Assembly (NCBI GenBank): GCA_965250185.1
Contig: OZ252293.1
Coordinates: 2,247,862 to 2,311,861 of the forward strand
Direction of reading: 5' to 3'
From: Vicinamibacterales bacterium
Lineage (GTDB): Bacteria; Acidobacteriota; Vicinamibacteria; Vicinamibacterales; G965250185
Length of the DNA: 64,000 nt
Made by a program: the position numbers and the translations under genes. The notes beneath the pieces were generated by a model. That model worked only from the letters and a program-made list of their open reading frames with translations, was not told the origin of the DNA and ran no database searches. Below, one piece after another: positions 7,090 through 61,540 of this stretch. The stretch's first letter is position 1. Every line of letters starts with the position of its first letter.

Positions 7090-7116
7090 GGCCGGCTGGC
7101 GCCGACCAGAACGCGC

Positions 7117-7374: not shown

Positions 7375-7407
7375 TCGGCAGGCTCCTTTCGACCGGCTCG
7401 AGGCCGA

Positions 7408-8038: not shown

Positions 8039-8147
8039 TCTTGCAGTGGCGGGCCTTGAGACACCGGCTCGCAGAACCGATAATGTTATCAAACTCGAAC
8101 GAGTTTTGGGCCCTCGGGCGATCCGGATCGAGACGCCCACGTGCTTT

Positions 8148-10017: not shown

Positions 10018-10080
10018 GATTGGAGGGTGCAAGGGCACAGGGGCCCAGGGGGTGAGGCGTGAACATCGTGTAAACATCGC

Positions 10081-12250: not shown

Positions 12251-12408
12251 CCGTTCAGGCGTTCAAGGGTTCAACGGTTCAGCGATTCGCGGTGGCCCAC
12301 CCAGGCCAAGGCTCCTGCAGGCAGGCCATCCGTCCCGTCCCGTGTCCGTTCCGTGGTGTTCCGTGATCGTTCCGTGTCCGTTCCGTGTCCGTTCCGTGTT
12401 CGTTCCGG
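12251..12408. repeat. composite array: (GTTCAAG-like)x4 arm, unique segment, then ~11-nt (GTCCGTTCCGT-like) tandem array
   Basis: ccgttcaggcgttcaagggttcaacggttcagcg at 12251-12284. ccgtcccgtcccgtgtccgttccgtggtgttccgtgatcgttccgtgtccgttccgtgtccgttccgtgttcgttccgg at 12330-12408. Confidence 0.85.
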
Positions 12409-13065: not shown

Positions 13066-13131
13066 GAGGTCGAGGAACCACCAATCACCACCCACCATCC
13101 ACCACCCACCATCCACCACCCACCAATCACC
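13024..13131. repeat. G-rich heptamer arm (13024-13058) followed by CCACC-rich array (13077-13131) abutting the ATG at 13133
   Basis: ggatcgggggccgaggatcagggatcggggaccgg ... ccaccaatcaccacccaccatccaccacccaccatccaccacccaccaatcaccc. Confidence 0.85.
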
Positions 13132-13132
13132 C

Positions 13133-13873
13133 ATGACCAACGCCGTCGAGATCCTCATCCGGCGCGATCGGGCGATCGTGCTGTCGGCGGTGGGCTGCCT
13201 GGTGGCCATCTCGTGGTTGATACTCGCGCTCGGTCATGGGGGTGTCGGCATCGGCTGGGGCGTGTGGCCGTTCGCGGCCGCATTCACGATGTGGATGATC
13301 ATGATGGTGGCGATGATGCTGCCGCCGGTCATGCCGTGGATCACGCTCTTCGCCTCCACGCGCCGGCGTCGAGACGCCGGCCGGCCATTCGGCGAGACGA
13401 CGGTCTTCGTGGCTGGCTACTTCAGCGTCTGGCTGGCGTTCTGCGTCATGGCCGCCGCGGTGCAGCTGGCGCTGCAGGAGTTGACCGTACTGCCTGCTGG
13501 CGCGGGCGCGCTGGACAGGCCCCTCGCGGGGGGTCTGCTCGCGGCTGCGGGCGCGTTCCAGCTGACGCCGCTCAAGGCCGCCTGCCTGCGACATTGCCGG
13601 AGCCCGATCGGCTTCTTCCTGTCACGCTGGCAGGACGGTCCGGTGGGCGCGTGGCGGATGGGCGCGACCCACGGCCTGTACTGTCTCGGCTGCTGCTGGG
13701 CCCTGATGCTGTTGTCGTTCGCGCTGGGCGTGATGAACGTGCTGTGGATGGCGGCCTTGACCTTCACGCTGTGTGTCGAGAAGATCGCGCCAGCCGGCGA
13801 CGCCCTCGGCCGCGCGTTCGGCGTCATGCTCATCTGCTGGGGAGCGTGGATCGTGCTCTCCCAGAACCTTTGA
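13133..13873 (+). CDS. DUF2182 family integral membrane protein (predicted metal-binding)
   Basis: Polytopic. MWMIMMVAMMLPP and CLRHCRSP motifs typical of DUF2182. Classical neighbour of DUF1326. Confidence 0.8.
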   Translation: MTNAVEILIRRDRAIVLSAVGCLVAISWLILALGHGGVGIGWGVWPFAAAFTMWMIMMVAMMLPPVMPWITLFASTRRRRDAGRPFGETTVFVAGYFSVWLAFCVMAAAVQLALQELTVLPAGAGALDRPLAGGLLAAAGAFQLTPLKAACLRHCRSPIGFFLSRWQDGPVGAWRMGATHGLYCLGCCWALMLLSFALGVMNVLWMAALTFTLCVEKIAPAGDALGRAFGVMLICWGAWIVLSQNL

Positions 13874-13893
13874 ACCCTTGAACCCTTGAACGG
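13864..13893. repeat. (CCTTGAA)x4 heptamer arm containing the DUF2182 stop codon
   Basis: gaacctttgaacccttgaacccttgaacgg is the reverse complement of the arm at 12251-12284. Confidence 0.85.
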
Positions 13894-17604: not shown

Positions 17605-18135
17605 TCACCTCGTGGACTCGAGAGGCTCTTCGTCGAACTTGATCAGGATGTACATGAACGGCTCGGACGGATCGATGACCAGGTGGTGCGAGACGGCCTC
17701 GGGCACGTGGACGATGTCGCCCGGGTCGAGCGTCTGGCTGCGGCCCCCGCGGATGGCCGAGCCTCGGCGCTGCTTGCGTGGCAGGTGCTGCGGCTCCACG
17801 AGCTCGCCACCAATTACGAACGTGGCCCGGCCCCGCGTGGCGATGTAGAGGTCTGACTCCGTCTCGTGGAACTCCGCGGTCCCGGTCTGTCCGCGGAGCA
17901 CGAGGTAGATCGAGTGGCCCTCGTAGGTGCCGATCGTCTCGTAGATCATCGCCTGGTCGCCCAGCCGCTCCTCGAGCCGGTCGGCGGCCGCTTCGACCCG
18001 GGTGGCGCTCCAGAGCACGTAACCCTCGGGACTTTCCACCGAGTCGGTTGCGGTGGATTGGGCCATCGCGACGGCCGGAGCGAACGCCACCATCGCCACC
18101 ATCGCCACCATCGCCACGAGCAGCAGTCGGTGCAT
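17605..18135 (-). CDS. secreted cupin-domain protein
   Basis: AGGAGG 5 nt upstream of ATG 18135. Signal peptide MHRLLLVAMVAMVAMVAFAPAVAMA. Cupin-like core ...FHETESDLYIATRGRATFVIGGE...GDIVHVPEAVSHH. Confidence 0.75.
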   Translation of the reverse strand: MHRLLLVAMVAMVAMVAFAPAVAMAQSTATDSVESPEGYVLWSATRVEAAADRLEERLGDQAMIYETIGTYEGHSIYLVLRGQTGTAEFHETESDLYIATRGRATFVIGGELVEPQHLPRKQRRGSAIRGGRSQTLDPGDIVHVPEAVSHHLVIDPSEPFMYILIKFDEEPLESTR

Positions 18136-19387: not shown

Positions 19388-19505
19388 GGGCTCGAGCCGC
19401 TCGCTCGGACTCTGGGCTCGGCTTTCGGTTTGCAGTCTTCAGTCTTCAGTCTTCAGTCTTTCACGCCCTGAGCCCTCGGGCCCTGATCCCTGATCCCCGA
19501 CCCCC
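19388..19505. repeat. mosaic array: GGGCTCG-like units, (CAGTCTT)x4, then GCCCTGA/TCCCTGA heptamers
   Basis: gcagtcttcagtcttcagtcttcagtctttc at 19432-19462. acgccctgagccctcgggccctgatccctgatccccgaccccc at 19463-19505. Confidence 0.85.
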
Positions 19506-20996: not shown

Positions 20997-21072
20997 CCAT
21001 TCAACACTCAGCATTCGACATTCAGCATGCAGCATTCAACATTCAACACTCGACATTCAACATTCGACATTC
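20997..21072. repeat. (CATTCRA/CATTCAG-like) heptamer array between two minus-strand genes, abutting the stop at 21073
   Basis: ccattcaacactcagcattcgacattcagcatgcagcattcaacattcaacactcgacattcaacattcgacattcc. Confidence 0.9.
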
Positions 21073-27960: not shown

Positions 27961-28815
27961 GTGGACCCAACCGCCTATCTCGCACGCATCGGCTACGACG
28001 CGGACCCCGCGCCGTCCCTGCGGACGCTTCGCCGCCTCCACCGCGACCACCTCACCCACATCCCGTTCGAGAATCTCGACATTCATCTCGGTCGCTCGAT
28101 CGGCTTGGATGCGCCGTCGATGTTCGACAAGATCGTGACACGCCGGCGCGGGGGATTCTGCTATGAGCTCAACGGCCTCTTCGCCTGGCTGCTGGAGCAG
28201 CTGGGCTTCGAGGTCAGCCGACACTCGGCCGGCGTGATGACGGACGGTCGCGTCGGGCCCGAGTTCGATCACCTGGCGCTGCTGGTCCAGCTCGACGAAC
28301 GCTGGTTGGTCGACGTGGGGTTCGGACAGTCGTTCCGCGATCCGCTGCGGCTCGTCGATGGCATCGACCAGATGCAGGGCGACGACCGCTATCGTTTGGT
28401 CCAGACGAAGCAGGGCGTGTGGCTGACCGGGCGGCGCGGCGACGAGCCGTGGGCGACGCTCTACCGGTTCAGCCTCACCGCGAGCACGCTCGCAGAATTC
28501 AGCGACATGTGCCGACACCACCAGGAGTCGCCAGACTCGTCGTTCACCCAACAGCGTGTTTGTTCGATCGAGTCGACCGGGGGCCGCGTGACCCTGGCGG
28601 GAATGACGCTGATCGAGACCGTCGGCGACGAGCGGCGCGAGACGCCAATCGGCTCGGATGGAGAGTACCGACAGATCCTGCTCGAGCGGTTCGGGGTCGA
28701 GCTCGGGGGCGCCGAGTGGAGGCGCCGAGTAGAGGGGGGACGGCGCGGCGCAGGAGCCTCAGGAACTCGGGGCTCGGGGCTCAGGGCTCAGCGTTCGGAC
28801 GGCGAGTCCGGCTGA
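27961..28815 (+). CDS. arylamine N-acetyltransferase (NAT) family
   Basis: YLARIGY, IPFENLDIH and catalytic-Cys motif RRGGFCYELN. The last ~35 codons read into the heptamer array. Confidence 0.85.
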   Translation: MDPTAYLARIGYDADPAPSLRTLRRLHRDHLTHIPFENLDIHLGRSIGLDAPSMFDKIVTRRRGGFCYELNGLFAWLLEQLGFEVSRHSAGVMTDGRVGPEFDHLALLVQLDERWLVDVGFGQSFRDPLRLVDGIDQMQGDDRYRLVQTKQGVWLTGRRGDEPWATLYRFSLTASTLAEFSDMCRHHQESPDSSFTQQRVCSIESTGGRVTLAGMTLIETVGDERRETPIGSDGEYRQILLERFGVELGGAEWRRRVEGGRRGAGASGTRGSGLRAQRSDGESG

Positions 28816-28857
28816 CTGCGTGATCCCGTCAAGCCCTAAGCCCTGATCCCTGATCCC
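28756..28857. repeat. inverted heptamer-arm element (GGGCTCA arm / 38-nt centre / TCCCTGA arm)
   Basis: gcctcaggaactcggggctcggggctcagggctcagcg ... agccctaagccctgatccctgatccc. The arms are reverse complements. Confidence 0.85.
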
Positions 28858-30705: not shown

Positions 30706-31062
30706 ATGCGCTGCTTCACCCATCACGACATCGAGGCCGTGGCCGTCTGCAAGAGTTGCGGTCGCGGCCTCTGCCCGTCCTGCGCCGTCGAGGTCGATCC
30801 CGGCATCGCCTGCCGCGATCGGTGCGAGGAGGAGGTGCGCTCGCTCAACCGCGTGATCGCACGAAACAAGACCGCGTACGAGAAGACCAGCGGCGCCTAC
30901 AGACGGGTCGCCTCGTTCTATGCCCTCGTCGGCGGCGGCTTCCTGTTCGGCGGCGTCCTCGACTGGCGCGGTTTCTCGTGGGTGCTGCTGCCCGCCAGCC
31001 TCATCTTCTTCTTCTCCGCCTACGTGCACTACTCGACCGGCCGACGCTTCGAGCGCGAGTAG
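30706..31062 (+). CDS. B-box-like zinc-finger membrane protein
   Basis: MRCFTHHDIEAVAVCKSCGRGLCPSCAVEVDPGIACRDRC, then two hydrophobic helices. Confidence 0.6.
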   Translation: MRCFTHHDIEAVAVCKSCGRGLCPSCAVEVDPGIACRDRCEEEVRSLNRVIARNKTAYEKTSGAYRRVASFYALVGGGFLFGGVLDWRGFSWVLLPASLIFFFSAYVHYSTGRRFERE

Positions 31063-31065
31063 CCC

Positions 31066-31815
31066 TCAGAAAACGTACGAGATGGCCATCACGATCGCGA
31101 TGTCGTTCTTCTTGATGTCCGGCGTTGGCGGCGCGTTTTTGAAGCTGTCGAGGAACTCGATGCTGAGCTGGCTGCGCGCCGTGATGGCCGTCACGAGCCC
31201 CGCCCTGAAGGTATAGAGTCCGTCGTTGAAGTCGTTCATCTTCCACAGCGCCGAGACCGATTGCGTGACCGAGGACGTCTCGGACAGCTGCAGATCGAAC
31301 CGCTCGCCGGCCGTCACGGCACCGCTCGTGAGCAGTTCGAACCCCGGATTCCTCTCCCACACGACGCCGACGCCGCCGTCCACCGACAGCAGCGCGACGT
31401 CGGTCATGTAGAGCTTGTGGCCGACCCCTGCCGTCGGGGCGAGGAGGTAGTCGATCGACTTGAAGGTGTCGCGTAGGTAGTCGATCTGCCCGAAGAAGAA
31501 CGTGCGTTCGGAGTAGGAGTACTCGTCCCGAAAGGCGAACGCCGAACGGTTGACGATCGTCTCACCGTCATTCGAGCCCCGCAGGTAGAGTCCATCGGCC
31601 CTGATGATGTTCTTCGTGGAGGGGTCCCGAACCAGCTCGAACCCCAGATTGAAGTTGCTGGTGTCGGCGTTTCCGCTGGTCAGTGCAAGTCCGGCGCCGA
31701 CCTTCCCCTGCCAGAGCGGCGTCGCTTCGGCCGGGGCCTCCTGGGCGAGGGCGGGTTCCACCAGACCACCGAACGAAAGAACCGACAGGACGGCGAAACG
31801 GGCGAGTGATCCCAT
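31066..31815 (-). CDS. DUF481-like outer-membrane beta-barrel protein
   Basis: Signal MGSLARFAVLSVLSFGGLVEPALA, alternating beta-strand pattern, C-terminal ...AISYVF. Confidence 0.8.
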   Translation of the reverse strand: MGSLARFAVLSVLSFGGLVEPALAQEAPAEATPLWQGKVGAGLALTSGNADTSNFNLGFELVRDPSTKNIIRADGLYLRGSNDGETIVNRSAFAFRDEYSYSERTFFFGQIDYLRDTFKSIDYLLAPTAGVGHKLYMTDVALLSVDGGVGVVWERNPGFELLTSGAVTAGERFDLQLSETSSVTQSVSALWKMNDFNDGLYTFRAGLVTAITARSQLSIEFLDSFKNAPPTPDIKKNDIAIVMAISYVF

Positions 31816-32073
31816 GAGGCCATTATCCTTGTGAGCCGCATCTCCGCGCGCAACCCTCCCCGTCGTGCGGGTCCAGTCACGACGCCGGCGGCTGGTGTAT
31901 GTGGACCCGAGCGGGTAGACGAAGGTCACACGCGCCCGGTAGTGGCACCCTAGATCAACTTTCGGGGCGGCGCTCTCGTCCAATCACTCAGACATTCGAC
32001 TGGGACGCGCTCGGCCTCGGACGACCCGCGTGTCCGCGGCCGAGACGGAGGGATGAGTACGGGGGGATGAGTC

Positions 32074-32970
32074 ATGAACAGGAACATGTTGCGGCACTCG
32101 ATTAGCCGGGTCGTCGTCGGAGCGGCGATTCTCGGCCTGATCCCGGCGATGCTGCCGGCGGCGGCGATGGCACAGACCGAGGGCTCCTTCGAGCGCACGC
32201 TCCAGGTGGACGGGCCGGTGGACCTGGACGTCGCCACTGGCTCAGGGGACATCACGATTCGAGCCGGCGGTGACGGTGAGGTGCAGATCACGGGTCGGAT
32301 GCGCCCTAGCTCCGACTGGCGCCGGGACACCGAGCAGGTCGCGGAGACCATCCGCGCCCTCGAGCAGGACCCGCCGATCGAGCAGACGGGCAACACGATT
32401 CGGGTCGGCCACATCGACGACCGGGACCGTCGCGAGGGGCTTCGGATCAGCTACGAGATCACGGTTCCGACCCAGACCCGCGCCGAGTCGCACACCGGAG
32501 CCGGCAGCCAGACAATCGCCGGCATCGCCGGCCCGCTCGACGCCGGCGCTGGGTCCGGCAGCCTGGAGCTCACGGACATCGGAGGCGACGTCGAAGCCAA
32601 CGCCGGCTCCGGGACCGTGACGATCGACGGGGTCGAGGGCGACGTCGAGGCACGCACCGGTTCCGGCTCGATCCGGATCGACGGCCTCACAGGCGGCCTG
32701 GACGCCCGAACCGGAAGCGGCAGCATCACCGTCGAGGGGGTGCCCGTCCGCGAATGGTCGCTGCGTGCTGGCTCCGGCACTCTGACAGTCGACATTCCGG
32801 ACGACACGGCGTTCGATCTGCGTGCCAGGACGAACTCCGGCGGGATCGACTCCGATCATCCGATCACCGTGCAGGGTCGCATGGGTCGCCGCACGTTGGC
32901 GGGCAGCGTACGTGGTGGCGGCGTGCTCCTGGACCTGTCCACCGGCTCGGGCAGCATCCGGATACGGTAA
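32074..32970 (+). CDS. DUF4097-type beta-strand repeat protein (putative adhesin fold)
   Basis: Signal peptide. Many G[ST]GS[IL]x[IV] repeats (TGSGSIRIDG, TGSGSITVEG, GSGSLELTD). Confidence 0.8.
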   Translation: MNRNMLRHSISRVVVGAAILGLIPAMLPAAAMAQTEGSFERTLQVDGPVDLDVATGSGDITIRAGGDGEVQITGRMRPSSDWRRDTEQVAETIRALEQDPPIEQTGNTIRVGHIDDRDRREGLRISYEITVPTQTRAESHTGAGSQTIAGIAGPLDAGAGSGSLELTDIGGDVEANAGSGTVTIDGVEGDVEARTGSGSIRIDGLTGGLDARTGSGSITVEGVPVREWSLRAGSGTLTVDIPDDTAFDLRARTNSGGIDSDHPITVQGRMGRRTLAGSVRGGGVLLDLSTGSGSIRIR

Positions 32971-32973
32971 GAC

Positions 32974-33041
32974 GGGCGGGGGCCAGGGGCCCGGGGCCGG
33001 GGACCGGGGATCGGGGCTGGTCGGCCGGGGGTCGGGGCCCC
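32974..33041. repeat. G-run array (CGGGGNC-like heptamers)
   Basis: gggcgggggccaggggcccggggccggggaccggggatcggggctggtcggccgggggtcggggcccc. Confidence 0.85.
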
Positions 33042-33080
33042 GTCGCGTGGTCCAGCCCTACGGATGTGTACGCGACAGGA

Positions 33081-33160
33081 CGTAGGGCACGAGCTTCAGC
33101 CGAGCGGTTCGTCCGTGGGGTCGCGTAGCGCGAGGCTTTCAGCCGAGCGGCTCTCCCGTA
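33081..33160 (+). repeat. REP-like element, two tandem half-copies (CGTAG..GCTTCAGCCGAGCGG)
   Basis: cgtagggcacgagcttcagccgagcggttc...cgcgtagcgcgaggctttcagccgagcggctc. Same motif as 37591, 39141 and 57055. Confidence 0.8.
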
Positions 33161-33239
33161 CAAACGACGGGCCGGGCTCCCGGAGAGATATCCCCCGCGG
33201 CGCCCGGCCCGTTCGACCGTCCCTCCTTTGTCTCGTCGA

Positions 33240-35045
33240 CTACTGAATCAGCACGTTCGCGGTCGCCAGCTTCTCGCCGACCTCGAACAGGTTCCCCCAG
33301 ACGATGTTGCGTGCGTCACCCCAGACGATGTGGTTTGCCCACGCATCGATGTTCTGGTAGACCGTGTCGCCCCACACGATGTGGTCGCCCCACACGATGT
33401 GCTGCGCCCAGGTGTACGTCTGGCCGTTGAGCGCCGTGCTCGGGTTCACCGGCCCAGTCAGCCACCACTGGTCGGCCGGCGCCGACGGGTCGATGGCGCG
33501 TGCCAGCTCGATCGCGCCAACCGGATTGAGCGTCCCCGTGCCCTGCGTCAGCGCGTCGTGCGGCACACCCTGCGCGTCGGACAGCGGAATGGCGCTGAAC
33601 TGCAGGATCGCCTTGACCGCGTTCGGCGTCAGATTGCGGTTAGCTTCGAGCAGCAGCGCCACCGCGCCGCTCGTCACGCCCGTGGCCATGCTCGACCCAC
33701 TCAGCACCAGGTAGTCGTGCCCGCCCGTGCCCTTCACACTGGTCGCGATTCCCGCCAGGTAGCTCGACTCCTGCGTCTCGGACGGCAGCCGATGGCCAGG
33801 CGCCACGAGATCCGGCTTCGCGAACCCGTCGTACCATGTCGGCCCGCGCGAGCTGTATGCCGCCACATGGTCGTCGGTCAGCTGGGTCGTCCCCTTCGTG
33901 TCGACCGAGCCCACCGTGATCGCCGACGGCGCGTTGCCCGGCGACGTCAGGCCGGCGTAGCCGACCTCGCCCGTCTCCGGGTTCTGACCGATGTTCCCCG
34001 CCGAGGCCACCACGACGATCCCCGCCCGCACAGCCGCCTCGACCGCCTGCACCAGTGGGTCCGATGCCGCCGGCTCGAAGATCGGATGCCCCAGGGACAG
34101 GTTGATGACGTCGATCCCGAGTGCGGCTCGATTCTCGACCGCGAACTCGACCGCCGCGATCACGTCGCTCGTCCGGCCCGACCCGTTCTCCTTGAGCACC
34201 CGCAGGCTGATCAGCCGTGCGTCCTCGGCCATCCCGCGATACTTGCCTCGCGAGTGGTCGCCGCTGCCTGCGATCAGACCAGCCACGTGCGTCCCGTGGC
34301 CGTAGGCGTCGCTCGGGCTCACGGCCACCGGCCCGCCCGGCACCGTGAAGTCGTAGGCATGTGTCAGGTTGAAGGCTGACGAATCTCCCACGATGCCAGA
34401 GTCGATCACCGCGACCCCGATCCCCTGGCCACTGCCCATCGCCGACGTCAGCCCGAAGATCTCCCGCAGCCGCAGGTCACTCGAGCTCGTCGATGTCGAG
34501 CCAGACGACGAGCCGCCGCGCTTCTTCTTCCGCGCGGCCGTGACCTTGGCGTCGATGGACATCGACTCGATGTTCGGATCTGCCGCCAGCGCCGCCAGGT
34601 CGTCCGCGTGGACGTTCACCGTGACGGCATCGAGCAGCGCGTGCTCCGTCTGCACCACGCCGTCCCGGGCCGCCACTGCATCGACGACGCCGGCCATGTT
34701 GGCCTCGGAGGCCTGGATGATCACCTTCACCGACCGGCGCGTCGCGGTCGTCTGCGCGAGCTCTGTCACCAGGGCTTCGTCCAGCTTCGCCAACTGGGTA
34801 GCATTCAAGTCGGACACCGTCGGCTGAGTCGTCGTCGTCTGGGTCGTCTGGGTCGACGTGCCCTTCTTCTCCTTCTTCTTCTTCTTCGCTTCCCCGACCG
34901 TCGGGGTCAGCAGCAGACCAATCGTCAGGAGCGCGGCCAGGCCGCGTCGCCAGTTGGGAGTCATCCTGTCCAGTCCCTTCGTCATTGTTCGCTCCGTCGC
35001 GTTCAAACTTGGCTTCGTCGTCATGTCGTTTATGTTGGATGTCAT
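33240..35045 (-). CDS. S8 family serine peptidase (subtilase) with C-terminal xVWGD repeats
   Basis: Catalytic D (VAVIDSGI), H (HGTHVAG), S (SGSSMATG). AGGAGG 5 nt upstream of ATG 35045. C-terminus HIVWGDHIVWGD...HIVWGDARNIVWGN. Confidence 0.9.
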   Translation of the reverse strand: MTSNINDMTTKPSLNATERTMTKGLDRMTPNWRRGLAALLTIGLLLTPTVGEAKKKKKEKKGTSTQTTQTTTTQPTVSDLNATQLAKLDEALVTELAQTTATRRSVKVIIQASEANMAGVVDAVAARDGVVQTEHALLDAVTVNVHADDLAALAADPNIESMSIDAKVTAARKKKRGGSSSGSTSTSSSDLRLREIFGLTSAMGSGQGIGVAVIDSGIVGDSSAFNLTHAYDFTVPGGPVAVSPSDAYGHGTHVAGLIAGSGDHSRGKYRGMAEDARLISLRVLKENGSGRTSDVIAAVEFAVENRAALGIDVINLSLGHPIFEPAASDPLVQAVEAAVRAGIVVVASAGNIGQNPETGEVGYAGLTSPGNAPSAITVGSVDTKGTTQLTDDHVAAYSSRGPTWYDGFAKPDLVAPGHRLPSETQESSYLAGIATSVKGTGGHDYLVLSGSSMATGVTSGAVALLLEANRNLTPNAVKAILQFSAIPLSDAQGVPHDALTQGTGTLNPVGAIELARAIDPSAPADQWWLTGPVNPSTALNGQTYTWAQHIVWGDHIVWGDTVYQNIDAWANHIVWGDARNIVWGNLFEVGEKLATANVLIQ

Positions 35046-35054
35046 GACGGCCTC

Positions 35055-37050
35055 CTAGTACTGGACGTGAGTCGCGCCGGCGTCACCACTCAGCTCGCCC
35101 CACACCAATCGGTCCGCATCCGTGACCTCGCCCCACACGAGCCGGTCACCCCAGATCACGCGATCGCCGTCCACGTAGCCGACCAGGCTGCTGCCCCAGA
35201 CGATGCGGTCGCCCCAGACCAGCCGGTTGCTCATCACGAGGCTCTCGCCCCACATGATCCGGTCGCCCCACACGAGGCGGTCGCCCCAGATGACCCGCTG
35301 GTCGAACGCCGGGTCGTTGACGTAGATCTGGTCGCCCCAGACCAGCCGGTCGCCCCACACGAGGCGCCGCGCCCAGGCCTGCACCTCGCCGCCGATCACG
35401 CTCGTCTCGAGCGTCATCTCGGTGCGCCACACCTCGCCCTCGGGCACGCGTGGGTCGAGCGTCATCGCCAGGGCGATCGCCCCGTCGGCATTGACGGCCC
35501 CGGCACCCTGCGTCAGCTCGTCGTAGCCCGGCAACTCGGTCGCCGTGTACTGCAGGATCGCCTTGACGGCGTTGGGTGACAGCGGCGGGTCCACCCGGTA
35601 CTGCTTGTCCACCTCGACGCCGAAGGCCTGGGCATTGGCGTCGAGGATCAGGGCCACCACCCCGCTCGTCACCGCCGCCGCCATGCTCGTCCCGCTCAAC
35701 TTCAGATACTGCTGGTTCCCCAAGCCGAACATGACGTCGAGTTGCAGGTTCGGGTTCTGCAGAAACAGCGAGCTCGCCTCGCTTCAGGGCATAGAGCTGC
35801 GTCCCGGGCGCCACCACGTCCGGCTTGGCGTAGGCGTCATACCAGGTCGGCCCCCGCGAGCTGAACGCCGGCACGACGTCGTCGCTCCGGCTGGCCGTGC
35901 CCATGATGTCCACCGCCCCGACCGTGATGGCCGACGGCGCATTGCCCGGCGACGTGATGCCGGCATAGCCGACCTCGTCGGTGTCCGGGTTCTGGCCGAT
36001 GTTGCCGGCCGAGACCACCACCACCAGCCCGGCCCGCACGGCCGCCTCGACGGCCTGCACGAGTGGGTCGGTCGCCGCCGGCTCCATGATCGGATGCCCC
36101 AGCGAGAGGTTGAGAATGTCGAGGTCGAAGTGGTCCTTGTTCGCCACGGCGAACTCGATGGCCCGGATGACATCGCTCGTGCGGCCTTCGCCGTGGGCGT
36201 CCAGGACCTTGAAGCCGTACAGCTTCACGTCCGGCGCCACGCCGCGGAACTCGCCCATCGACGAGCGGGCCGCGTTGGCGATCAGGGCCGCGACGTGCGT
36301 CCCGTGCCCGTAGTCATCGTAGGGGGCGGTCGCCACCGGGGTGTCGCCCTGCGTGAAGTCGTAGAAGCCATGGACCCGCCGGAGGTCCTGCTTGTCGAAC
36401 TCGAGCCCCGAGTCGATCACCGCCACCCGGATGTTGCCCTGCCCATCGAACATGGCGAGCTCATCGTCGAGCCCGAGGGCGGTCAGCATCAGGTTCGAGT
36501 CGACGATCCCGAGGCTCGCGAAGTCGATTGCGTCGGGGCTCGGCTCCGGAGCAAATGGCGCCCCGAGGTTGGTCCCGTCGTTGTTGTTGATGGTGCCGGA
36601 GGGCGTGGTGTCCGTGTTCTTGTTCTTGCCCTTGGCTTTGCCCTTGCTCTGGCCGGCGGCCCGGACGATCGCATCGGCCGAGACGCGCATCACGTCGGGA
36701 TGCGCGGCCAGCCCGGCCAGGTCGTCACCGTGAACGACGGCGCTCAGGGCGCCGATCGATGCATGGTTGCCCTTGACCACATTGCCGTGCGCCTCGAGCT
36801 CGGTCTTCAAGGCCTGGCGCCGACCCGACTTGGTCGTGATGATCACGCGCTGGGCCTGCGTCTCGTGGTTGGCGACCTTGGCCCGTAGCCGCGTGTCGAG
36901 CTTCGTCAGGTCACGCTCGACGACCGGGGCCGAAGCCTCGGTGGCGGGGCGAGCCGGCGCCTTGGCCTTCTTTTTCTTGGCCTCGGCGGGCAGGCCCACC
37001 AGGCCGGTCATCAGTCCGACGACGACGACGTGTCGAATCAGTTGGTACAT
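35055..37050 (-). pseudogene. S8 family serine peptidase paralog, frame broken near 35781-35786 (or sequencing error)
   Basis: D (VAVIDSGL) and H (HGTHVAA) are in ORF 35146..37050. The catalytic-Ser part (SGTSMAAAVTSG) and 11 xVWGD-type repeats are in ORF 35055..35732, in the +1 frame. The junction APGTQLYALK / SEASSLFLQNPN aligns with the paralog. Confidence 0.75.
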
Positions 37051-37482
37051 CTCTCGTTTCCCTCTCTACTTCGCGACCGGACCCGTTCATGTCTGGCCGC
37101 GAATTACGGTCGGGTGATAGTCGCTTCACCCGTCGCCTGCCGTAGAGCACGAGGGATGCCAGATGGGTCGATATCTCATAAGGCATTGATATGAGACCAC
37201 TTACCGGAATTCGCAGTGCCGCTGATCGGGCCTGGCTCGTCGCGATGTGCCTCGTTGCTGGGCACCTGCTGGCCCGGGCCACGCGCGGGGCGCGGATTGT
37301 GGAGAGATTCAGGGAATCAGCCGGTGCCTCATCGTGGGACACGGGGCGGCGGAACGAGGCACGCGCGGCTAGCGCGGGACGAGCGAGAGTCGCGTCGAGC
37401 AACGAAAATCGAAAATCAGTACGCAGATTCGTGCAGCGGTGTGCGGTTTTTGCAGGGCGGTGCACGATGAATGGCACCGCTT

Positions 37483-37603
37483 CTTACGTCGCGCGACGGA
37501 TGACACGCGTCGTACGTAGCGCGACGGGGACAGTGCGTCGTACGTAGCGCGACGGTGACCGTCGTACGTAGCGCGACGGTCACCGTCGTACGTAGCGCGA
37601 TGG
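37483..37603. repeat. tandem palindromic units (CCGTCGTACGTAGCGCGACGG, ~24-nt period, 4-5 copies)
   Basis: cgtcgtacgtagcgcgacgg recurs at about 37508, 37535, 37559 and 37583. Each unit has a 6-bp stem CCGTCG/CGACGG. Confidence 0.85.
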
Positions 37604-37665
37604 CTTCAGCCGAGTGGATCTCGCACCAGTGTGACTCTGGCGCTTGGCTGAAGCCGCGCGCTACG
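37591..37665 (+). repeat. REP-like palindromic element (full copy)
   Basis: cgtagcgcgatggcttcagccgagtggatctcgcaccagtgtgactctggcgcttggctgaagccgcgcgctacg. Termini CGTAGCGCG/CGCGCTACG and inner GGCTTCAGCC/GGCTGAAGCC are inverted repeats. Confidence 0.85.
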
Positions 37666-37679
37666 GATTCGAGGGAAGT

Positions 37680-39119
37680 CTAAACCCTGCCGAAGGCGAC
37701 CGATCCGGTGAGGTCGTGCTCTCCGGTGGCAATCATCCACGAGACGGCCTTGGACGGCAGGAACGACTCGCGAATGAATCCACGGTTCGCGACCTGCCGA
37801 ACCTCCCACTCCATCCGGTCGCGATAGACGCGGAAGATTCGATACGAGTTCGGCCACTCGACGAATGCGGCGTTCTGGATATGGGTAAGACCGTCGACGA
37901 CGTTGACTTCGTCCCAGTGGTCGTGGCCGTTGAGGGTGGCGAAGACGTTGGGGGCCGCACGCACGATGTCGAGCACGGCCTCCTTGCCGAGTTCGCTCCA
38001 CGTCGAGACGGCACCCCGGTTGTACGGGGCGTAGTGCCAGACGACCACGGTCGGCGTCGTGGTATCGGCCGCGAGCGTCTCGCGCAACCAGGCCCGCTTG
38101 TGCGGCTGCATCACCGGTTCCTCGATCTCGACGTCGAGCACGACGAACCGCAGTGGCGGCTTCATGAAGCTGTAGTCCAGCTGGCCACCGGGGAAGTGGT
38201 CGGCGAGTAGTTCGCGGGCATCCGGTCGTGAGGTCACGAGATAGCGATCATGGTTGCCGATGCAACCGTAGACCGGGAGCGGCTGCGACTTCAGGACGCC
38301 AGCCATCAGGGCGAACTCTTCCCTGAGCGCTCGCTCGGTCATGTCCCCCGCGTGCATGACGAAATCGATGCCCTCGGCCGCCAGCGCGTGCAGCGTCCGC
38401 GCGAATTCCGGAGCCGTGGCGGCGCCCATCTTCCGATTCATCCAGTCCTCGCGGCCTTCGAAGCGCAGATGGGTGTCTCCGATCAGCGCGAACCGGTACA
38501 GTGGAGATTCGACGGATCGCTCGCTGGCTTCGAGCGTGAGGGAAACGAGACGGCCACCAGTGCGAAAGTGGGGTCCCGCGACGGTCAGGTAGTGGCGCCC
38601 CTCGGGCAGCAGCCACTCGCCGAGCGCGACTGTCCGGGGCGGTTCGCCGCCCGTCACCACCGGCGCCGGGTCGGTCACCTCGTCGATGCCCCACTCCGGA
38701 GCCGAGACCATCGGCGCGCTGACGAGCGTTGTGTCCGAGAGTACCGAGACCCGGAGGCCCGGTCTCAGGTCGGGAGGCGCCTCGAGCTCGATCTGGCCGG
38801 TGACGTACGTTGCCTGCGCCACGTCGACCGCGAACACTGCGAGACCATCTGGTGTGATACTCGCACCGGAGGACCGGGCGGCTTCGACCTCTGCGTTGGT
38901 GAGACCGGACGCGAGCGCGGCGGAAGAACCGTCGAGGCGCACTCGCGATCCGGGTCGCACCGACACGGCCCGTCGGTCCGCATCGTCGCGCAGCCGACGC
39001 TCGAGCTCGGGGTAGACGTCGATCGGCGTGCCGGCGCCCGAGAGCGACGTCTGACCAGTCAGCCCAGCGCCGAGGCCGAGCGCCATCGACGTCAGAAAAT
39101 CGCGCCGGGTCGGAGACAT
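37680..39119 (-). CDS. Tat-secreted metallophosphoesterase (calcineurin-like)
   Basis: MSPTRRDFLTSMALGLGAG twin-arginine signal. GDTHL, HAGDMTE, GNHD and GHDH phosphoesterase motifs. Confidence 0.85.
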   Translation of the reverse strand: MSPTRRDFLTSMALGLGAGLTGQTSLSGAGTPIDVYPELERRLRDDADRRAVSVRPGSRVRLDGSSAALASGLTNAEVEAARSSGASITPDGLAVFAVDVAQATYVTGQIELEAPPDLRPGLRVSVLSDTTLVSAPMVSAPEWGIDEVTDPAPVVTGGEPPRTVALGEWLLPEGRHYLTVAGPHFRTGGRLVSLTLEASERSVESPLYRFALIGDTHLRFEGREDWMNRKMGAATAPEFARTLHALAAEGIDFVMHAGDMTERALREEFALMAGVLKSQPLPVYGCIGNHDRYLVTSRPDARELLADHFPGGQLDYSFMKPPLRFVVLDVEIEEPVMQPHKRAWLRETLAADTTTPTVVVWHYAPYNRGAVSTWSELGKEAVLDIVRAAPNVFATLNGHDHWDEVNVVDGLTHIQNAAFVEWPNSYRIFRVYRDRMEWEVRQVANRGFIRESFLPSKAVSWMIATGEHDLTGSVAFGRV

Positions 39120-39140
39120 AGGTGTTCGTGCCTGTTGCGT

Positions 39141-39217
39141 ACGTAGCGCGCCGGCTCTAACCAAGCGCCAGCGTCACGCGGGTTCGAGATCCGCTCGGCT
39201 GAAGCCTCGCGCTACGT
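39141..39217 (-). repeat. REP-like palindromic element (full copy, inverted relative to 37591)
   Basis: The reverse complement reads cgtagcgcgaggcttcagccgagcggatctcgaacccgcgtgacgctggcgcttggttagagccggcgcgctacgt and aligns along its length with 37591-37665. Confidence 0.85.
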
Positions 39218-39232
39218 GATCTTTCAAACGAT

Positions 39233-39311
39233 CCACCATTCGACATTCCCATTCGACATTCCCATTCGACATTCCCCATTCGACATTCTCCATTCGACAT
39301 TCTCCATTCAC
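39233..39311. repeat. (CCATTCGACATT-like) 12-13-nt tandem array x6, abutting the stop at 39312
   Basis: ccaccattcgacattcccattcgacattcccattcgacattccccattcgacattctccattcgacattctccattcacc. Confidence 0.9.
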
Positions 39312-40313
39312 CTATCTCCCCGGCTCCATCACAGGCTGTGTCCACGCGAGGAGGCCGTTCGAGTCGAGGATCTTCGTTCGCACGTAGCGCTCGCGACCGG
39401 TGAAGTCGTAGCTCGCGCTGGGGGTGGCGACTTCTTTCAACACGGCACCGCCCTCGCCGATGAACTGGACTCGATACTTCGCGTCGCTGTTCGGCGTGAC
39501 TGCGAGGCTCATTCGGCTTTCGGAAACCTCGTACTCGTCTAGCTCGACGCCGGTCGAAGCGTAGAAGTCGCCGCGCTCGAGCGCGGCCATGATGGCGTCG
39601 GCGGCGAGCCGTTCGGCCTTGACCGAGACCCACCCTCGGCCCGGGCGCGGCGCGTTCGGGTTCCACGGCTGCTTGAAGACGTGCGCATCGTCGACGGCGA
39701 TACCGTAGAGCAGGATGCCCCGAGAGAGGATGTCGTCCCAGATCTCCTCCAGCCCGGGTATGCCGCCTCCGCCGGCATTGTTCACGGCGGGGTGACCGTT
39801 GTAGATCTCGAGCAGACGGTTATTGCGAACCTGGGCCAGCTCGTCGGTCGTGATGGCCCAGCGGAAGTTGGGATGGTTGATGTGGGGGACTCCGTCGGCG
39901 GCGCGGATCGCGTCCACGTTACGTTGAATCGCCTCGACGACCGTGCGGCCGTCCTGCGCCTCGACGAACCGTTTCACGTCGAGACCGTTGATGTGGATCG
40001 GCTTGGCGGCGTGAGGCGACGTCACCTCCTCGCCCGGGATGACCAGGAACTGCTCGTCGGCCCCGTAGAGCGCGTTGAGGCCGTCCACGCTCGTCAGGAA
40101 GTTGTGATCGGTGAGCACGAGGAAGTCATACCCCTGCTCGCGATACCAGCGCACGACCTCGTCAGGCGTACTGTCGCCATCGCTATTCAGCGTGTGGGTG
40201 TGCGTGTTGCCCTTGTACCATCGGGTTAGTTCGTCGCCGGGTGGCTCCTGGCCGGGGATGGCGGTGGCGAAGAAGGCCAGGGCGAACAACGTGAGCAGGG
40301 CCGAGCGACTCAT
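39312..40313 (-). CDS. PHP-domain-like metallohydrolase (CehA/McbA family)
   Basis: KGNTHTHTLNSDGDSTPDEVVRWYREQGYDFLVLTDHN. Signal peptide MSRSALLTLFALAFFATA. Confidence 0.8.
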   Translation of the reverse strand: MSRSALLTLFALAFFATAIPGQEPPGDELTRWYKGNTHTHTLNSDGDSTPDEVVRWYREQGYDFLVLTDHNFLTSVDGLNALYGADEQFLVIPGEEVTSPHAAKPIHINGLDVKRFVEAQDGRTVVEAIQRNVDAIRAADGVPHINHPNFRWAITTDELAQVRNNRLLEIYNGHPAVNNAGGGGIPGLEEIWDDILSRGILLYGIAVDDAHVFKQPWNPNAPRPGRGWVSVKAERLAADAIMAALERGDFYASTGVELDEYEVSESRMSLAVTPNSDAKYRVQFIGEGGAVLKEVATPSASYDFTGRERYVRTKILDSNGLLAWTQPVMEPGR

Positions 40314-44424: not shown

Positions 44425-44527
44425 GGAGGGCGAGTGGGGCAAGTGGGGCAAGTGGGGCGAGTAAGGCGAGGGAGGCGAGTGGGGACACACCGCGATACCC
44501 GTGCTCGCTCTCCCCACTTGCCCTATT
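44425..44527 (-). repeat. nonamer-arm/core element, copy 1 (inverted orientation)
   Basis: gggagggcgagtggggcaagtggggcaagtggggcgagtaaggcgagggaggcgagt + core ggggacacaccgcgatacccgtgctcgctctcccc + acttgccctattc. Confidence 0.9.
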
Positions 44528-45294
44528 CACAGTTGTTCCCGATTCCGAAGCCCATCATCGGGGTGATCCACCTGCCGCCGCTGCCGGGGTGGCCCGGGTC
44601 GCCCGGAATCGATGGCGTCATCGCCCGGGCGCTCGCTGACCTGGCCGCCCTGGAAGCCGGCGGAATCGAGGCGGTGCTCGTCGAGAACGAGCACGACCGG
44701 CCGCACGAGGTGTGCGCCAGCGCCCGCACGGTCGCGGCCATGACGCGCGTGACCGACGAGGTCGTGCGCGCAGCTCGAGCCGCGGTCATTGGCGTCGAGA
44801 TTCTGCTGAACGATCCGAAGGCGTCCGTGTCGGTTGCGAGCATGACCGGGGCCCGGTTCGTCAGGACCGATTACTTCGTCGACCGGATGACTCGCCCCGA
44901 GTACGGCGGCGAGATGGAGATCGACCCTGCCGGGTTGCTCGCCCATCGCCACGCGATCGGCGCCGTCGACGTCTTGATCCTGGCCGACATCCAGGTCAAG
45001 TACGCCACGATGCTCGAGCCGCGGCCCCTCACCGAGTCGGCGCGCGCGGCAGAAGCATGCGGGGCCGACGCAATCGTCGTGACCGGTTCGGTGACGGGAG
45101 AGCCGCCACGGCACGAGGAGCTCGCGGCCGCGCGCGCCGGCGCCGGCGGGCTGCCAGTGCTGATCGACAGCGGCCTCGATGCCACCAACGCCGCCCAACT
45201 CCTCGAGGCCGCCGACGGTGCCATCGTCGGGACCAGCCTCCAGGGCCCGGATGGGGTCGATGCGCACAAGGTGCGTGAACTCTTGAAGGGCTAG
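44518..45294 (+). CDS. BtpA/SgcQ family TIM-barrel protein
   Basis: IIGVIHLPPLPGWPGSPG and VLVENEHDRP are typical of BtpA. Start uncertain (TTG 44518 or 44536); the ORF-track start 44434 lies in the repeat array. Confidence 0.8.
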   Translation: MPYSQLFPIPKPIIGVIHLPPLPGWPGSPGIDGVIARALADLAALEAGGIEAVLVENEHDRPHEVCASARTVAAMTRVTDEVVRAARAAVIGVEILLNDPKASVSVASMTGARFVRTDYFVDRMTRPEYGGEMEIDPAGLLAHRHAIGAVDVLILADIQVKYATMLEPRPLTESARAAEACGADAIVVTGSVTGEPPRHEELAAARAGAGGLPVLIDSGLDATNAAQLLEAADGAIVGTSLQGPDGVDAHKVRELLKG

Positions 45295-45575
45295 TAGGGC
45301 TTAGTGGGGCGAGTAGGGCCAGGAGGGCAAGTGGGGCGAGTGGGGTGAATAGGGCCAGTAGGGAGAGCGAGCCCGGGTGTCGCGGTGTCGCCCCACTCGC
45401 CCCACTAGCCCCACTTGCCCTCCTGGCCCCACTCGCCCCACTAGCCCCACTCGCCCCACTAGCCCCACTCGCCCTACTCGCCCTACTCGCCCCACTCGCC
45501 CCACTCGCCCCACTCGCCCCACTCGCCCCACTCGCCCCACTCGCCCCACCTGCCCTACTCGCCCTACTAGCCCCC
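45295..45575 (+). repeat. nonamer-arm/core element, copy 2 (8 G-rich units, core, 20 C-rich units)
   Basis: G arm 45295-45360 (NNAGTRGGG units). Core gggagagcgagcccgggtgtcgcggtgtcg. C arm 45391-45570 is 20 x CCCCACTCG-like units. Confidence 0.95.
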
Positions 45576-45579
45576 AAAT

Positions 45580-46392
45580 ATGCACGTTGTCTGCGTCGGT
45601 GACTGCGGCGTCGATCGCTACGTGAACCTCGGACTGGACCGCCCGGGGGGCATCACGTTGAATTTCGCGATCCATGCGCGGGACTGTTTGCCGGGGACGG
45701 ACGTGGTCACGATCGTGACGGCGCTCGGTCTGGACGACGAGGCGCAGCTGGTGCTCGAGGCGATCGAGCGGTTCGGGATTCCCAGCTGCCTGACCCGGAT
45801 CGAGGGTCGGACACCGGTTCAGTACATCGATCAGGAGCCATCCGGTGAGAAGCGCTTCGTGCGCTACGACGAGGGTGTGCTGGTGACGTACCGGCTCGAC
45901 GCTAGGGCGCGCCGGCTGGTTCAGGAGAGCGACCTCCTGGTGACGAATGTCTACCGGCAGGTCGAGCGTTTCTTCGACGAACTGATCGAGATCCCGTCGC
46001 GCGGTCTTCGTTTCGTCGACTTCCTCGACCTGTCTGACTATACGGATGGCGCGGCTTTCGTCGAGCGCTACATCGAGCGATTCGATATCGGTCTGTTCGG
46101 GCTGGCGTCCGACGCCGACGTCCGAATCGACGCGCTGGAGCGGCTGGCGCGGTCGCACGGCAAGCTCTTCATCGTCACGCTCGGTCCTGGCGGAAGCCTT
46201 GCGCTCGGTGGGTCGACGCGCGTGCGCTGCCCGGCGCACCATGTGGAGCCGGTCGTGGACACGACCGGCGCCGGCGACGCCTTCGCGGCAGGCTTTCTCG
46301 CGAGCTACATGGAATCCCGCGACGTGGTCCAGGGTCTGGATGCCGGGAGCCGACAGGCGGCCAAGGTCGTCCAGATGGTCGGAGGGTTTTGA
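45580..46392 (+). CDS. PfkB family carbohydrate kinase
   Basis: MHVVCVGDCGVD... and C-terminal DTTGAGDAFAAGFL ATP-binding motif. Confidence 0.85.
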   Translation: MHVVCVGDCGVDRYVNLGLDRPGGITLNFAIHARDCLPGTDVVTIVTALGLDDEAQLVLEAIERFGIPSCLTRIEGRTPVQYIDQEPSGEKRFVRYDEGVLVTYRLDARARRLVQESDLLVTNVYRQVERFFDELIEIPSRGLRFVDFLDLSDYTDGAAFVERYIERFDIGLFGLASDADVRIDALERLARSHGKLFIVTLGPGGSLALGGSTRVRCPAHHVEPVVDTTGAGDAFAAGFLASYMESRDVVQGLDAGSRQAAKVVQMVGGF

Positions 46393-46397: not shown

Positions 46398-46618
46398 TCC
46401 GTTCAAGGTTCAATTGTTCAAGCGTTTCAAGAGTTCGAGGTGGCCGGTGGGGAAGAATGGCGGGCATCTTCTATTATTCGGGGGTAAAATCAAAGAAGAG
46501 GCGATGCCAGCGCCTGAGCACCCGAGGGTTCGACGGCCAGAGGGTAAGTGAAGTTGCGCGAGCGACTGCGAGCGCCTCCGCGAACCCTTGAACCGTTGAA
46601 CCCTTGAACTTTTGAACG
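46398..46618 (+). repeat. heptamer-arm element: (GTTCAAG)n arm, 141-nt centre, (CTTGAAC)n arm
   Basis: tccgttcaaggttcaattgttcaagcgtttcaagagttcgagg ... gaacccttgaaccgttgaacccttgaacttttgaacg. Confidence 0.9.
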
Positions 46619-46634: not shown

Positions 46635-47246
46635 ATGGATCTTGCCACGCAGCTCATGTTGGGAATCGGACTGGCGGCCTGTGCCGGTCTGCGGGCCTGG
46701 CTGCCGCTGCTGCTCGTGAGCGTGATGGCCAAGGGAGGCTATCTGACGCTCGGCGGCAACTTCGAGTTCCTCGCGCGAGAGGACACCATCGTGATCCTCG
46801 CCATCGCGACCGTGCTCGAGGTACTGGGAGACAAGCTGGTCGGCGTTGACCATATACTCGACGCCATAGGGACAATCGCGCGTCCGGCCGTCGGGGCCCT
46901 CATGGCATCGGCCGTGCTCATCGACCTGGATCCGCTTGCCGCGGCAATCCTGGGTCTCATTGCCGGTGGGGCCTCCTCGATGCTCGTCCACTCCGGTAAG
47001 TCGATTGTTCGAGCGAAGACGACCGCACTGGTTCCAGTCCATGGCGGGGTCGGAAACGCGATGGTCTCGACCGCGGAAGACGTGACCTCGGGCGTGGGGG
47101 CCTGGATGATCCTCTCGGACCCGACGCTGGCGTTCGCGGTCGTCGCCCTCGCCCTCATCGGTGCGGCGTGGGTCGTGGCCAAGGCGGCGCGTGCCGTGCG
47201 CCGCGCGACGACCGTCCTGCGGAAACCGGCAGCGTCGGACGCGTAA
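46635..47246 (+). CDS. DUF4126 family membrane protein
   Basis: GLAACAGLRAWLPLLLVS, EVLGDKLVGVDHILD. AGGAG upstream of the ATG. Confidence 0.8.
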   Translation: MDLATQLMLGIGLAACAGLRAWLPLLLVSVMAKGGYLTLGGNFEFLAREDTIVILAIATVLEVLGDKLVGVDHILDAIGTIARPAVGALMASAVLIDLDPLAAAILGLIAGGASSMLVHSGKSIVRAKTTALVPVHGGVGNAMVSTAEDVTSGVGAWMILSDPTLAFAVVALALIGAAWVVAKAARAVRRATTVLRKPAASDA

Positions 47247-47413
47247 CGAGTAGGGCAAGGAGGGCTAGGAGGGCGAGTAGGGCAAGTGGGGAGAGTGAAC
47301 CCGCGTGTCACGGTGCCGCCCCACTCGCCCCACTCGCCCCACTCGTCGCCCTTGCCCTACTCGCCCCACTCGCCCCACTCGTCGCCCTTGCCCTACTCGC
47401 CCTCCTAGCCCCA
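47247..47413 (+). repeat. nonamer-arm/core element, copy 3
   Basis: cgagtagggcaaggagggctaggagggcgagtagggcaagt + core ggggagagtgaacccgcgtgtcacggtgccg + 10 CCCCACTCG-like units. Fills the whole spacer between two convergent stops. Confidence 0.9.
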
Positions 47414-47415
47414 CA

Positions 47416-54310: not shown

Positions 54311-54874
54311 ATGCAACGTGTTCTCGCAATCCTGACGGCCATGGCCCCGGTCATCATGGTCACCATGGTCACCATGGTCACCATGGTCCCCCTCGCCCAG
54401 ACCGTCCCTGACTTCTCCGGCACCTGGACCATCGATCGGGACCGGAGCGACGACCCTCCGCGCATGGGCGGAGGCGGTCGCGGAGGCGGCGGCGGTGGCG
54501 GGCGTCGGGGACCTGGCGCGGGAGGCCCGATGGGCGGATTGATGGAACTCGCCGACACGGTGGTCATCGAGCAGACCGAGATCGAACTGATTCTCCTGAT
54601 GGGAGACCGGCGAGTCGAGCTGCGCCTCGACGGTGCCGAGAGCGCGAACGGTGGACCGCGAGGCGACGTCGTGACCACGTCGCGATGGGAAGGCGTCGCC
54701 CTCTTCACGACCGGTCGCGTCGAGATGTCGACGCCCCGGGGCGAGATGACGATCGAGACGGAAGAGATTCGCTCGCTCAGCGAGGATGGCGTCGCGATGA
54801 CGGTCAAGACGACCGTGAGGACGCCGCGGGGCGAGCGAAGCTTTACGAGGGTCTACGCAAAGACCGTTGAATGA
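54311..54874 (+). CDS. secreted hypothetical protein with Gly/Arg-rich linker
   Basis: Signal MQRVLAILTAMAPVIMVTMVTMVTMVPLAQ, GTWTIDRDRSD, then MGGGGRGGGGGGGRRGPGAGG and a beta-rich C-terminal half. Confidence 0.65.
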   Translation: MQRVLAILTAMAPVIMVTMVTMVTMVPLAQTVPDFSGTWTIDRDRSDDPPRMGGGGRGGGGGGGRRGPGAGGPMGGLMELADTVVIEQTEIELILLMGDRRVELRLDGAESANGGPRGDVVTTSRWEGVALFTTGRVEMSTPRGEMTIETEEIRSLSEDGVAMTVKTTVRTPRGERSFTRVYAKTVE

Positions 54875-59455: not shown

Positions 59456-61396
<1,941 letters not shown>

Positions 61397-61540
61397 TGCA
61401 CCGTGGTCTGAAAACCGTGAGCCTCGAACCGTGAGCCCCGAACCGTGAGCCCCAAGCCGAGAGCCCAAAGCCGAGAGCCCAGAACCCAGAACCCCGACCC
61501 CCGAGCCCCGACCCCCGATCCCCGATCCGGAGGATTACCC

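Follow-up and report, generated by a model that had tools for sequence, protein, structure and literature searches.

Cyanobacterial STRR are arrays of directly repeated heptamers. Foldback transposons, such as the FB elements of Drosophila, carry long inverted arms made of short tandem repeats, vary in arm length as well as in loop content, and are tied to rearrangements. REP and REPIN elements are extragenic palindromes, tagged with GTAG or CGTC and arranged in inverted doublets, for which roles in mRNA stability and termination have been proposed. The closest description of the feature studied here is that of the paired convergent GGGAATC heptamer arrays of Xanthomonas, of which 70-75 convergent inverted pairs were reported, with an arrangement that is conserved between species and an array length that varies (Rehm et al. 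2015, PMC4692102). Heptamer direct-repeat arrays were also described in Beggiatoaceae (TAACTGA), cyanobacteria and Bacteroidetes, where they are almost never inverted (1 of 170 sets in BOGUAY, PMC4679880). Further points of comparison are MITEs that contain tandem repeats, e.g. the minisatellite MITE of P. gingivalis (PMC4596501), the REP/REPIN elements mobilised by RAYT transposases (PMC3733652) and eukaryotic Foldback-type elements such as Tetris (PMC4079207). For Vicinamibacteria we found no description of such repeats in the literature.

The element analysed here comprises 221 nt (46398-46618) of a 64,000-nt stretch of a Vicinamibacterales genome, hereafter called the window, in which all positions without a locus name are counted. 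It takes up nearly the whole of the 242 nt that separate a PfkB-family kinase gene from a DUF4126 gene and is intergenic, since it sits between the stop codon of the former and the ribosome-binding site of the latter. With moderate confidence we interpret it as one copy of a clade-specific, non-coding intergenic repeat of foldback/MITE-like type, i.e. a paired-SSR hairpin. Its parts and the adjacent genes are as follows.

45580-46392, plus strand: PfkB-family kinase gene, upstream; its stop codon lies 8 nt 5' of the left arm
46401-46441, no strand assigned: left arm, GTTCAAG GTTCAAT TGTTCAAG CGTTTCAAG AGTTCGAG, 4-5 units with an irregular spacing of 7-9 nt
46433-46445, plus strand: family junction GTTCGAGGTGGCC, closing the left arm on its inner side
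46446-46472, plus strand: poorly conserved left part of the centre (GGTGGGGAAGAATGGCGGGCATCTTCT), which occupies the place of the REP-like module of other copies and ends in GGCGGGCATC as those do
46457-46591, plus strand: 44-codon ORF proposed earlier, rejected as a gene
46463-46508, plus strand: inner stem GGCATCTTCT / AGAAGAGGCGATGCC, enclosing the AT-rich loop 46473-46493
46478-46564, no strand assigned: conserved 87-nt core within the centre, sharing 93% identity and its orientation with the related loci L125-L129
46573-46585, minus strand: right junction GCCTCCGCGAACC, complement of the family junction with 2 mismatches
46582-46617, no strand assigned: right arm, GAACCCTT GAACCGTT GAACCCTT GAACTTTT GAAC, period 8, 4.5 copies
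46635-47246, plus strand: DUF4126 gene, downstream; AGGAG ribosome-binding site and ATG, 17 nt past the right arm

The first-pass annotation, made from the letters of the window, had described reverse-complementary tandem-repeat arms around a unique centre, and these are indeed present at 46398-46618. It had called the arms heptameric; the GTTCAAG-like units on the left are spaced irregularly by 7-9 nt, and in the right arm the unit is the octamer GAACCNTT, repeated 4.5 times with a period of 8. The two arms match imperfectly, with 33 identities over about 42 aligned positions between the left arm and the reverse complement of the right one, and their local alignment reaches a score of 24, compared to a mean of 5.95 for random 45-nt windows. 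GTTCAA/TTGAAC hexamers are strongly concentrated here: the 220 nt of the element contain 7 of the 30 present in the window, against an expectation of about 0.1. The G+C content is 42-44% in the arms and 61% in the centre, with 66.6% for the window. When folded as a whole, the element is more stable than its shuffled counterparts on both strands (z = -2.7 for plus and z = -4.3 for minus).

In several respects this arrangement resembles the arrays of Xanthomonas. Both consist of intergenic tandem units of 7-9 nt, often as two convergent, reverse-complementary arrays able to form a stem-loop, and in both, related genomes share the arrangement but differ in array length. Judged by Xanthomonas-type criteria we found at least three copies of a 6-9 nt unit in an intergenic position, a convergent reverse-complement array, and variation in length and content. 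Unlike the Xanthomonas arrays, the present ones are built from an AT-richer unit, GTTCAANN, which has no G3 tracts and cannot form G-quadruplexes, G-tracts being a trait of the Xanthomonas family and not a general one. They further differ by a fixed junction motif with a REP-like module, by the 140-nt centre, and by arms that can lie 1.6 kb apart around genes.

For a comparison of alleles at this locus we used five collinear loci on long metagenomic contigs (L125-L129), whose flanking genes are 95-97% identical to the window. In L125, L126, L128 and L129 the outer arm units GTTCAAGGTTCGATTGTTC ... GAACCCTTGAACTTTTGAAC are conserved and the inner arms are fully different, the GTTCAAG units being replaced by CCGCCTTCGCCAAGGCTACGGCGGGCAGGC on the left and by its reverse complement on the right. 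The paired arrangement is thus kept while array content varies, with the inner arms swapped on both sides. In L127 the left arm was lost by rearrangement, and the core and the right arm are retained. Folding of the relatives' allele gives a stem about 50 bp long, at -149.7 kcal/mol (z = -9.5); given the values of -2.7 and -4.3 above, the weaker hairpin is the one carried by the window. In the relatives' allele the inner module comprises two GC-rich quasi-palindromes of 30 nt, inverted with respect to each other, a trait shared with REP/REPIN elements. Unlike those, the elements described here are much longer, have octamer arrays without a REPIN counterpart and lack the GTAG or CGTC head: the arms begin with GTTCAAG, and neither tag heads the REP-like module.

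Pairing that survives a complete swap of the inner arms would also be expected of a selected cis-acting RNA hairpin, with arms kept as an RNase III site, a 3'-end stabiliser or a partial terminator, much like REP/BIME elements or the stems flanking rRNAs and rRNA intervening sequences. We consider such a role unlikely. Palindrome-templated repair can mirror changes without selection too, the window allele is weak and rich in mismatches (z = -2.7 and -4.3, against -9.5 in the relatives), elements come and go between genomes that are about 95% identical, and arm copy number varies among near-identical strains. The mismatches between the arms show no G-U bias toward either strand, as far as our inspection of the alignment by eye goes, and no intrinsic terminator site was found on the plus strand, where the stem is followed by GACATTC and not by a U-tract.

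The more distant set comprised loci L001-L004, with a DUF4126 protein 86% identical, as well as L134/L135 and L136 (DUF4126 71-74% identical); further loci were L138 (PpoB2 69% identical) and L141 (EttA 88% identical). The gene order DUF5916-BtpA-PfkB-DUF4126-ADI of the window is retained in L134/L135 and L136, with junctions that measure 4 nt or overlap. Their PfkB-DUF4126 spacers (150 nt in L134, 84 nt in L136) have no arms and are unrelated to the centre in the window. The corresponding junctions of the window measure about 108, 285, 242 and 169 nt; three of the four hold nonamer hairpins of the type (GGGCGAGTG)n...(CACTCGCCC)n, and the remaining one, between PfkB and DUF4126, holds the GTTCAAG-armed element. 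The comparison with these relatives, in which the gene order is the same but the spacer is short and unrelated, shows a late arrival: the element entered or grew in the PfkB-DUF4126 spacer after the split from them. Hairpins at four consecutive junctions of a gene run that is tightly packed in L134 and L136 are a further point in favour of a selected RNA hairpin.

The paired-arm architecture of the element had earlier been likened to that of the nonamer hairpins nearby, and the parallel holds. Nonamer hairpins are located at 44428-44525, 45287-45574 and 47252-47414 of the window and at about 10612-10930 of L125-L129. They have a common centre of about 27 nt, GTGARCCCGNGTGTCNCGGTG, which is found in either orientation; in the hairpin between DUF4126 and ADI (47252-47414) it is inverted in five of five relatives with respect to the window. 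The copy number of the nonamer arms differs in each of the five relatives. Inside the BtpA-PfkB nonamer hairpin of L125-L129 (about 6800-8870, corresponding to 45367-45530 of the window) we found an IS3-type element (HTH_Tnp_1 + rve) and a DDE_3 element, for which reason repeat hairpins may be IS targets.

Returning to the GTTCAAG-armed repeat, which we favour as a dispersed non-coding family, copies of its arms occur at other sites in the window and in related genomes. A family arm consists of tandem GTTCAANN octamers, followed by the junction GTTCG(C/A)GGTGGCC (GTTCGNGGTGGCC) and mostly by a REP-like module of about 30 nt (CCACCYTCGCCAAGGCTNCGGCGGGCAGGC). The junction TTCGNGGTGGCC had been noticed earlier behind a second arm of the window, and this was confirmed at 12285-12297; it occurs in further family copies as well, and its complement lies at 46573-46585 of the element itself. 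Altogether the junction is located at the inner end of octamer arrays at 46433-46445 and 12285-12297 of the window, at L137:661, 840(-) and 3169, at L138:3176 and 4853(-), and at L001:3929(-). In most copies it is followed by the REP-like module, which is related to the inner arm of the L125-L129 allele. Two further arms in the window deserve separate description.

12253-12407, plus strand: second left-type arm, upstream of DUF1326; an array of GTTCA octamers, then the junction ATTCGCGGTGGCC, a REP-like module and CCGTTCCGTGT 11-mers in tandem
13864-13891, plus strand: second right-type arm, (GAACCCTT)x3.5, reaching from the stop codon of PpoB2 to 8 nt short of the ATG of EttA

This pair of arms, 1.6 kb apart, brackets the DUF1326-PpoB2 genes. 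In L138 the arms on both sides of DUF1326-PpoB2 align with each other in reverse complement over about 150 nt, a mirrored bracket much like a processing stem and as such another observation that a selected RNA hairpin would explain. Locus L141 has the same DUF1326-PpoB2 gene order with tight junctions and no arms; the two genes are therefore resident, and we ruled them out as transposon cargo. Arms placed around resident genes do not fit the insertion of one unit at this site. An example of a complete hairpin elsewhere (z = -6.7) is given by L137:634-885, in a relative about 95% identical to the window; its GTTCAAGG arms are mirror images that share even an irregular 7-nt unit. At the orthologous place the window has a spacer of only 48 nt (10019-10067) with a short octamer-like run, GGGTGCAAGGGCACAGGGGCCCAG. 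L001:3789-3965 is a solo arm. Arms and junction are common to at least five loci, and the centres are unrelated between the copies compared. On the sequences compared, the family is clade-specific and dispersed between genes in this genome of a soil Vicinamibacterales bacterium (Acidobacteriota), a placement to which named homologues of EttA also point.

The CCGTTCCGTGT 11-mer array forms the innermost part of the composite arm at 12335-12407 of the window, at about 3230-3290 of L137, at 3270-3320 and 4760-4790 of L138 and at 3789-3836 of L001. It is conserved across species, and in L138 it has an inverted counterpart beyond DUF1326-PpoB2.

With MITEs the element shares its small size (221 nt, below about 500 bp), the lack of coding capacity, terminal inverted repeats, a dispersed intergenic location and presence/absence between close relatives. 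It differs from them in that neither a target-site duplication nor a parent IS or transposase was seen, in that the internal sequence differs between the copies compared, and in that the terminal repeats are tandem arrays of variable length. The flanks GAGGATCC (left) and GACATTCA (right) have no common direct repeat, and the same was found at 12253 and 13891; likewise, no transposase or parent IS with ends matching the arms was found. Mobility of the element is thus what presence and absence alone would suggest, and the lack of a target-site duplication and of a known parent element, together with the arms that bracket resident genes at one locus, argues against classical transposition. The likeness to Foldback elements is to be taken as an analogy only, as they belong to another domain of life, show no sign of shared ancestry and have no linked transposase as a counterpart in the present family. 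Like the cyanobacterial and Beggiatoaceae arrays, the family consists of short tandem intergenic units, often directly before start codons, with a patchy phylogenetic distribution, and the window also holds solitary arrays of that kind. Unlike those, which are nearly always direct, the arrays described here have inverted pairing as their defining feature.

Solitary heptamer arrays without an inverted partner were located in the window at 5867-5907 (CACCATT), 13078-13131 (CCACCAC), 19433-19497 (CAGTCTT), 20998-21072 (CATTCAA) and 39236-39309 (CCATTCG). At least two of them end a few bases before a start codon, as do heptamer repeats in cyanobacteria or Beggiatoa. Hairpin-type arrays of GGGCTCA / TGAGCCC-like heptamers around short centres are present at 28766-28857 and 61359-61529. 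GTAG-type REP-like palindromes (GTAGCGCGAGGCTTCAGCC and variants), together with a 24-28 nt tandem repeat, CGTCGTACGTAGCGCGACGG, make up a separate repeat family at about 33100-33160, 37478-37670 and 39185-39215. Tandem repeats of 9 nt just past apparent start codons, at 54349-54388 (GGTCACCAT x4.4) and 18085-18117 (CGCCACCAT x3.7), would translate into VTM/VAM-like tripeptide repeats within hydrophobic regions at the N-terminus. A segment of about 9.3 kb (30991-40295) has no counterpart at the collinear position L128:1766, and IS elements are located near it.

We also asked how common the GTTCAA unit is at large. A genome scan for GTTCAANN arrays yielded at least 120 stretches in many phyla, with inverted pairs in at least 22 loci. 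In viral contigs octamer arrays of GTTCAA numbered 66, those of permuted control units 71, 21 and 52. As the permuted controls are about equally frequent, the unit is not special; we dropped the notion of a special cross-phylum unit, also in view of the other phyla, whose arrays come without the junction or the module. In an Ignavibacteria MAG (L050:26-720) inverted GTTCAARG arrays bracket a gene for a four-helix-bundle protein, which we take from its sequence to resemble the 23S rRNA intervening-sequence protein. A link to such four-helix-bundle (rRNA IVS protein) genes was rejected, as they are bracketed in 1 of about 120 loci among the matches listed.

For the 140-nt centre between the arms, a discrete structured RNA and a small gene had both been proposed. 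A search with the centre found it to be single-copy in the window and in all relative loci compared, so we rejected the core as a repeated element; for a 20-mer of the core the metagenome collection yielded just four chance hits, none with extended similarity. The centre was found only in genomes that are about 95% identical, which sets the scope for any covariation. Its AT-rich stretch, earlier described as the most AT-rich one noticed in the window, is among the lowest in G+C (38%), but 13886 and 21034 reach 35%. The predicted inner stem of GGCATCTTCT with AGAAGA..GATGCC is present; in the relatives its left side reads GGCGTT, so that the pairing is kept only partly. By our reading of the alignment by eye, positions 46446-46472 are only about 55% alike between the window and the otherwise about 95% identical relatives.

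The proposal of a structured RNA did not hold up. Rfam gave no family at gathering thresholds in the window, the best match under permissive settings being RF02932 with 14.3 bits against a threshold of 49.4. Folded alone, on either strand and in both alleles, the centre has z values between -0.7 and +1.1 (+0.3 to +1.1 for the centre of the present element), no better than shuffled sequences, from which it follows that all of the excess fold stability of the element comes from the arms. The spacers of L134 and L136 are unrelated to it. We also discarded a tRNA or tmRNA: GGGTTCGA in the core resembles a T-loop, and ARAGORN finds neither in the window.

The centre might still be a small RNA, or else a promoter and 5' UTR of DUF4126 with GGGGGTAAAAT (46480-46490) as the -10 element and the arms incidental, a reading that we regard as highly improbable. 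It can draw on the 87-nt core, which shows 93% conservation and one orientation throughout the relatives, L127 without a left arm among them, on the conserved TAAAAT, which in our own reading is loosely like a TCCGGTGGTAAYCT block common to the L134 and L136 spacers, and on a weak terminator-like hairpin on the minus strand (46515-46499). However, the plus strand has no promoter-like site, there is no -35 element, the core has neither a fold-stability signal nor an Rfam match and was not found beyond the group of about 95% identity, and its likeness to the ancestral spacers falls short of significance (p = 0.05 to 0.9). On the last result we also rejected the idea that the core is left over from such a spacer; a match to a decayed REP-like module is plausible by eye but again not significant (p >= 0.05). 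Moreover, core conservation is at background level. DUF4126 is 94.8% identical overall between window and relatives and 87.7% at third codon positions, so that the 7% divergence of the core falls between the overall (5%) and the third-position value (12%) and no clear constraint on it is seen. The core has one and the same orientation in the window and L125-L129, i.e. in six genomes including L127, which gives no sign of an inverton; at a background divergence of only about 5%, this constancy would neither prove nor exclude a function.

As for a gene, the 44-codon ORF had been placed at 46458-46592, and its ATG actually lies at 46457 and its TGA ends at 46591. That it encodes a 44-residue protein is hardly credible. 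The frame is open in the window and starts with ATG, but the five close relatives lack the start codon and have a frameshift from a 1-nt indel in the core, no ribosome-binding site precedes the ORF, no Pfam match was found, and the frame is the tail of a 181-codon open frame running over the PfkB gene. No reading frame on either strand of the centre is conserved across the relatives. A minus-strand ORF of 70 aa (no Pfam match, not conserved) and a 15-codon ORF behind AAGAGG (ATG 46503; frameshifted in the relatives by our own reading of the alignment) were rejected as well. These negative results mark the 140-nt centre as passenger sequence, neither an sRNA gene nor an ORF.

Under the reading that we prefer, a clade-specific paired-SSR hairpin without coding function, the family arms probably turn over quickly. 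Arm changes would come about by replication slippage within the arrays and by one arm of the palindrome being copied from, or recombining with, the other; changes on both arms at once, as in the swapped inner arms, would follow from palindrome-templated copying between arms. In a PfkB-DUF4126 co-transcript the arms would pair into a long and imperfect duplex of RNA, which could be a substrate of RNase III or could slow 3'-exonucleases or RNA polymerase. Such a duplex could partly uncouple PfkB from DUF4126, and no selected function would be required; our best reading is that any effect of the hairpin on the co-transcript is incidental. A bolder proposal, which we rate as improbable, is that the elements form a class of foldback-type DNA in bacteria, mobile or self-propagating, which has so far not been described. 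Their arms would then be generated and kept mirror-symmetric by a dedicated process, either palindrome-templated synthesis or an unknown trans-acting enzyme, and the elements would colonise operon junctions and be able to bracket resident genes with 150-nt complementary arms.

For annotation, the family is a reminder that long hairpins in soil Acidobacteriota can pass for sRNAs, small ORFs or gene starts; the mechanical ORF list of the window extends the BtpA and PfkB-frame ORFs into repeats. As regards evolution, repeat hairpins have split up a compact gene run between genomes that are not far apart, and the changes seen include hypervariable arm lengths, mirrored changes of two arms, IS insertions into hairpins and a flipped loop. 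The interest of the repeat lies mainly in this rapid, mirror-symmetric evolution. If the hairpins are purely selfish, they would provide a good system for the origin and persistence of palindromic tandem repeats in bacteria. If they act on RNA, they would add an unstudied layer of operon uncoupling in an abundant and poorly known soil phylum. Should the foldback-type mobile class prove true, operon transcripts would be reshaped by it, and loop flipping would create expression differences at strain level.
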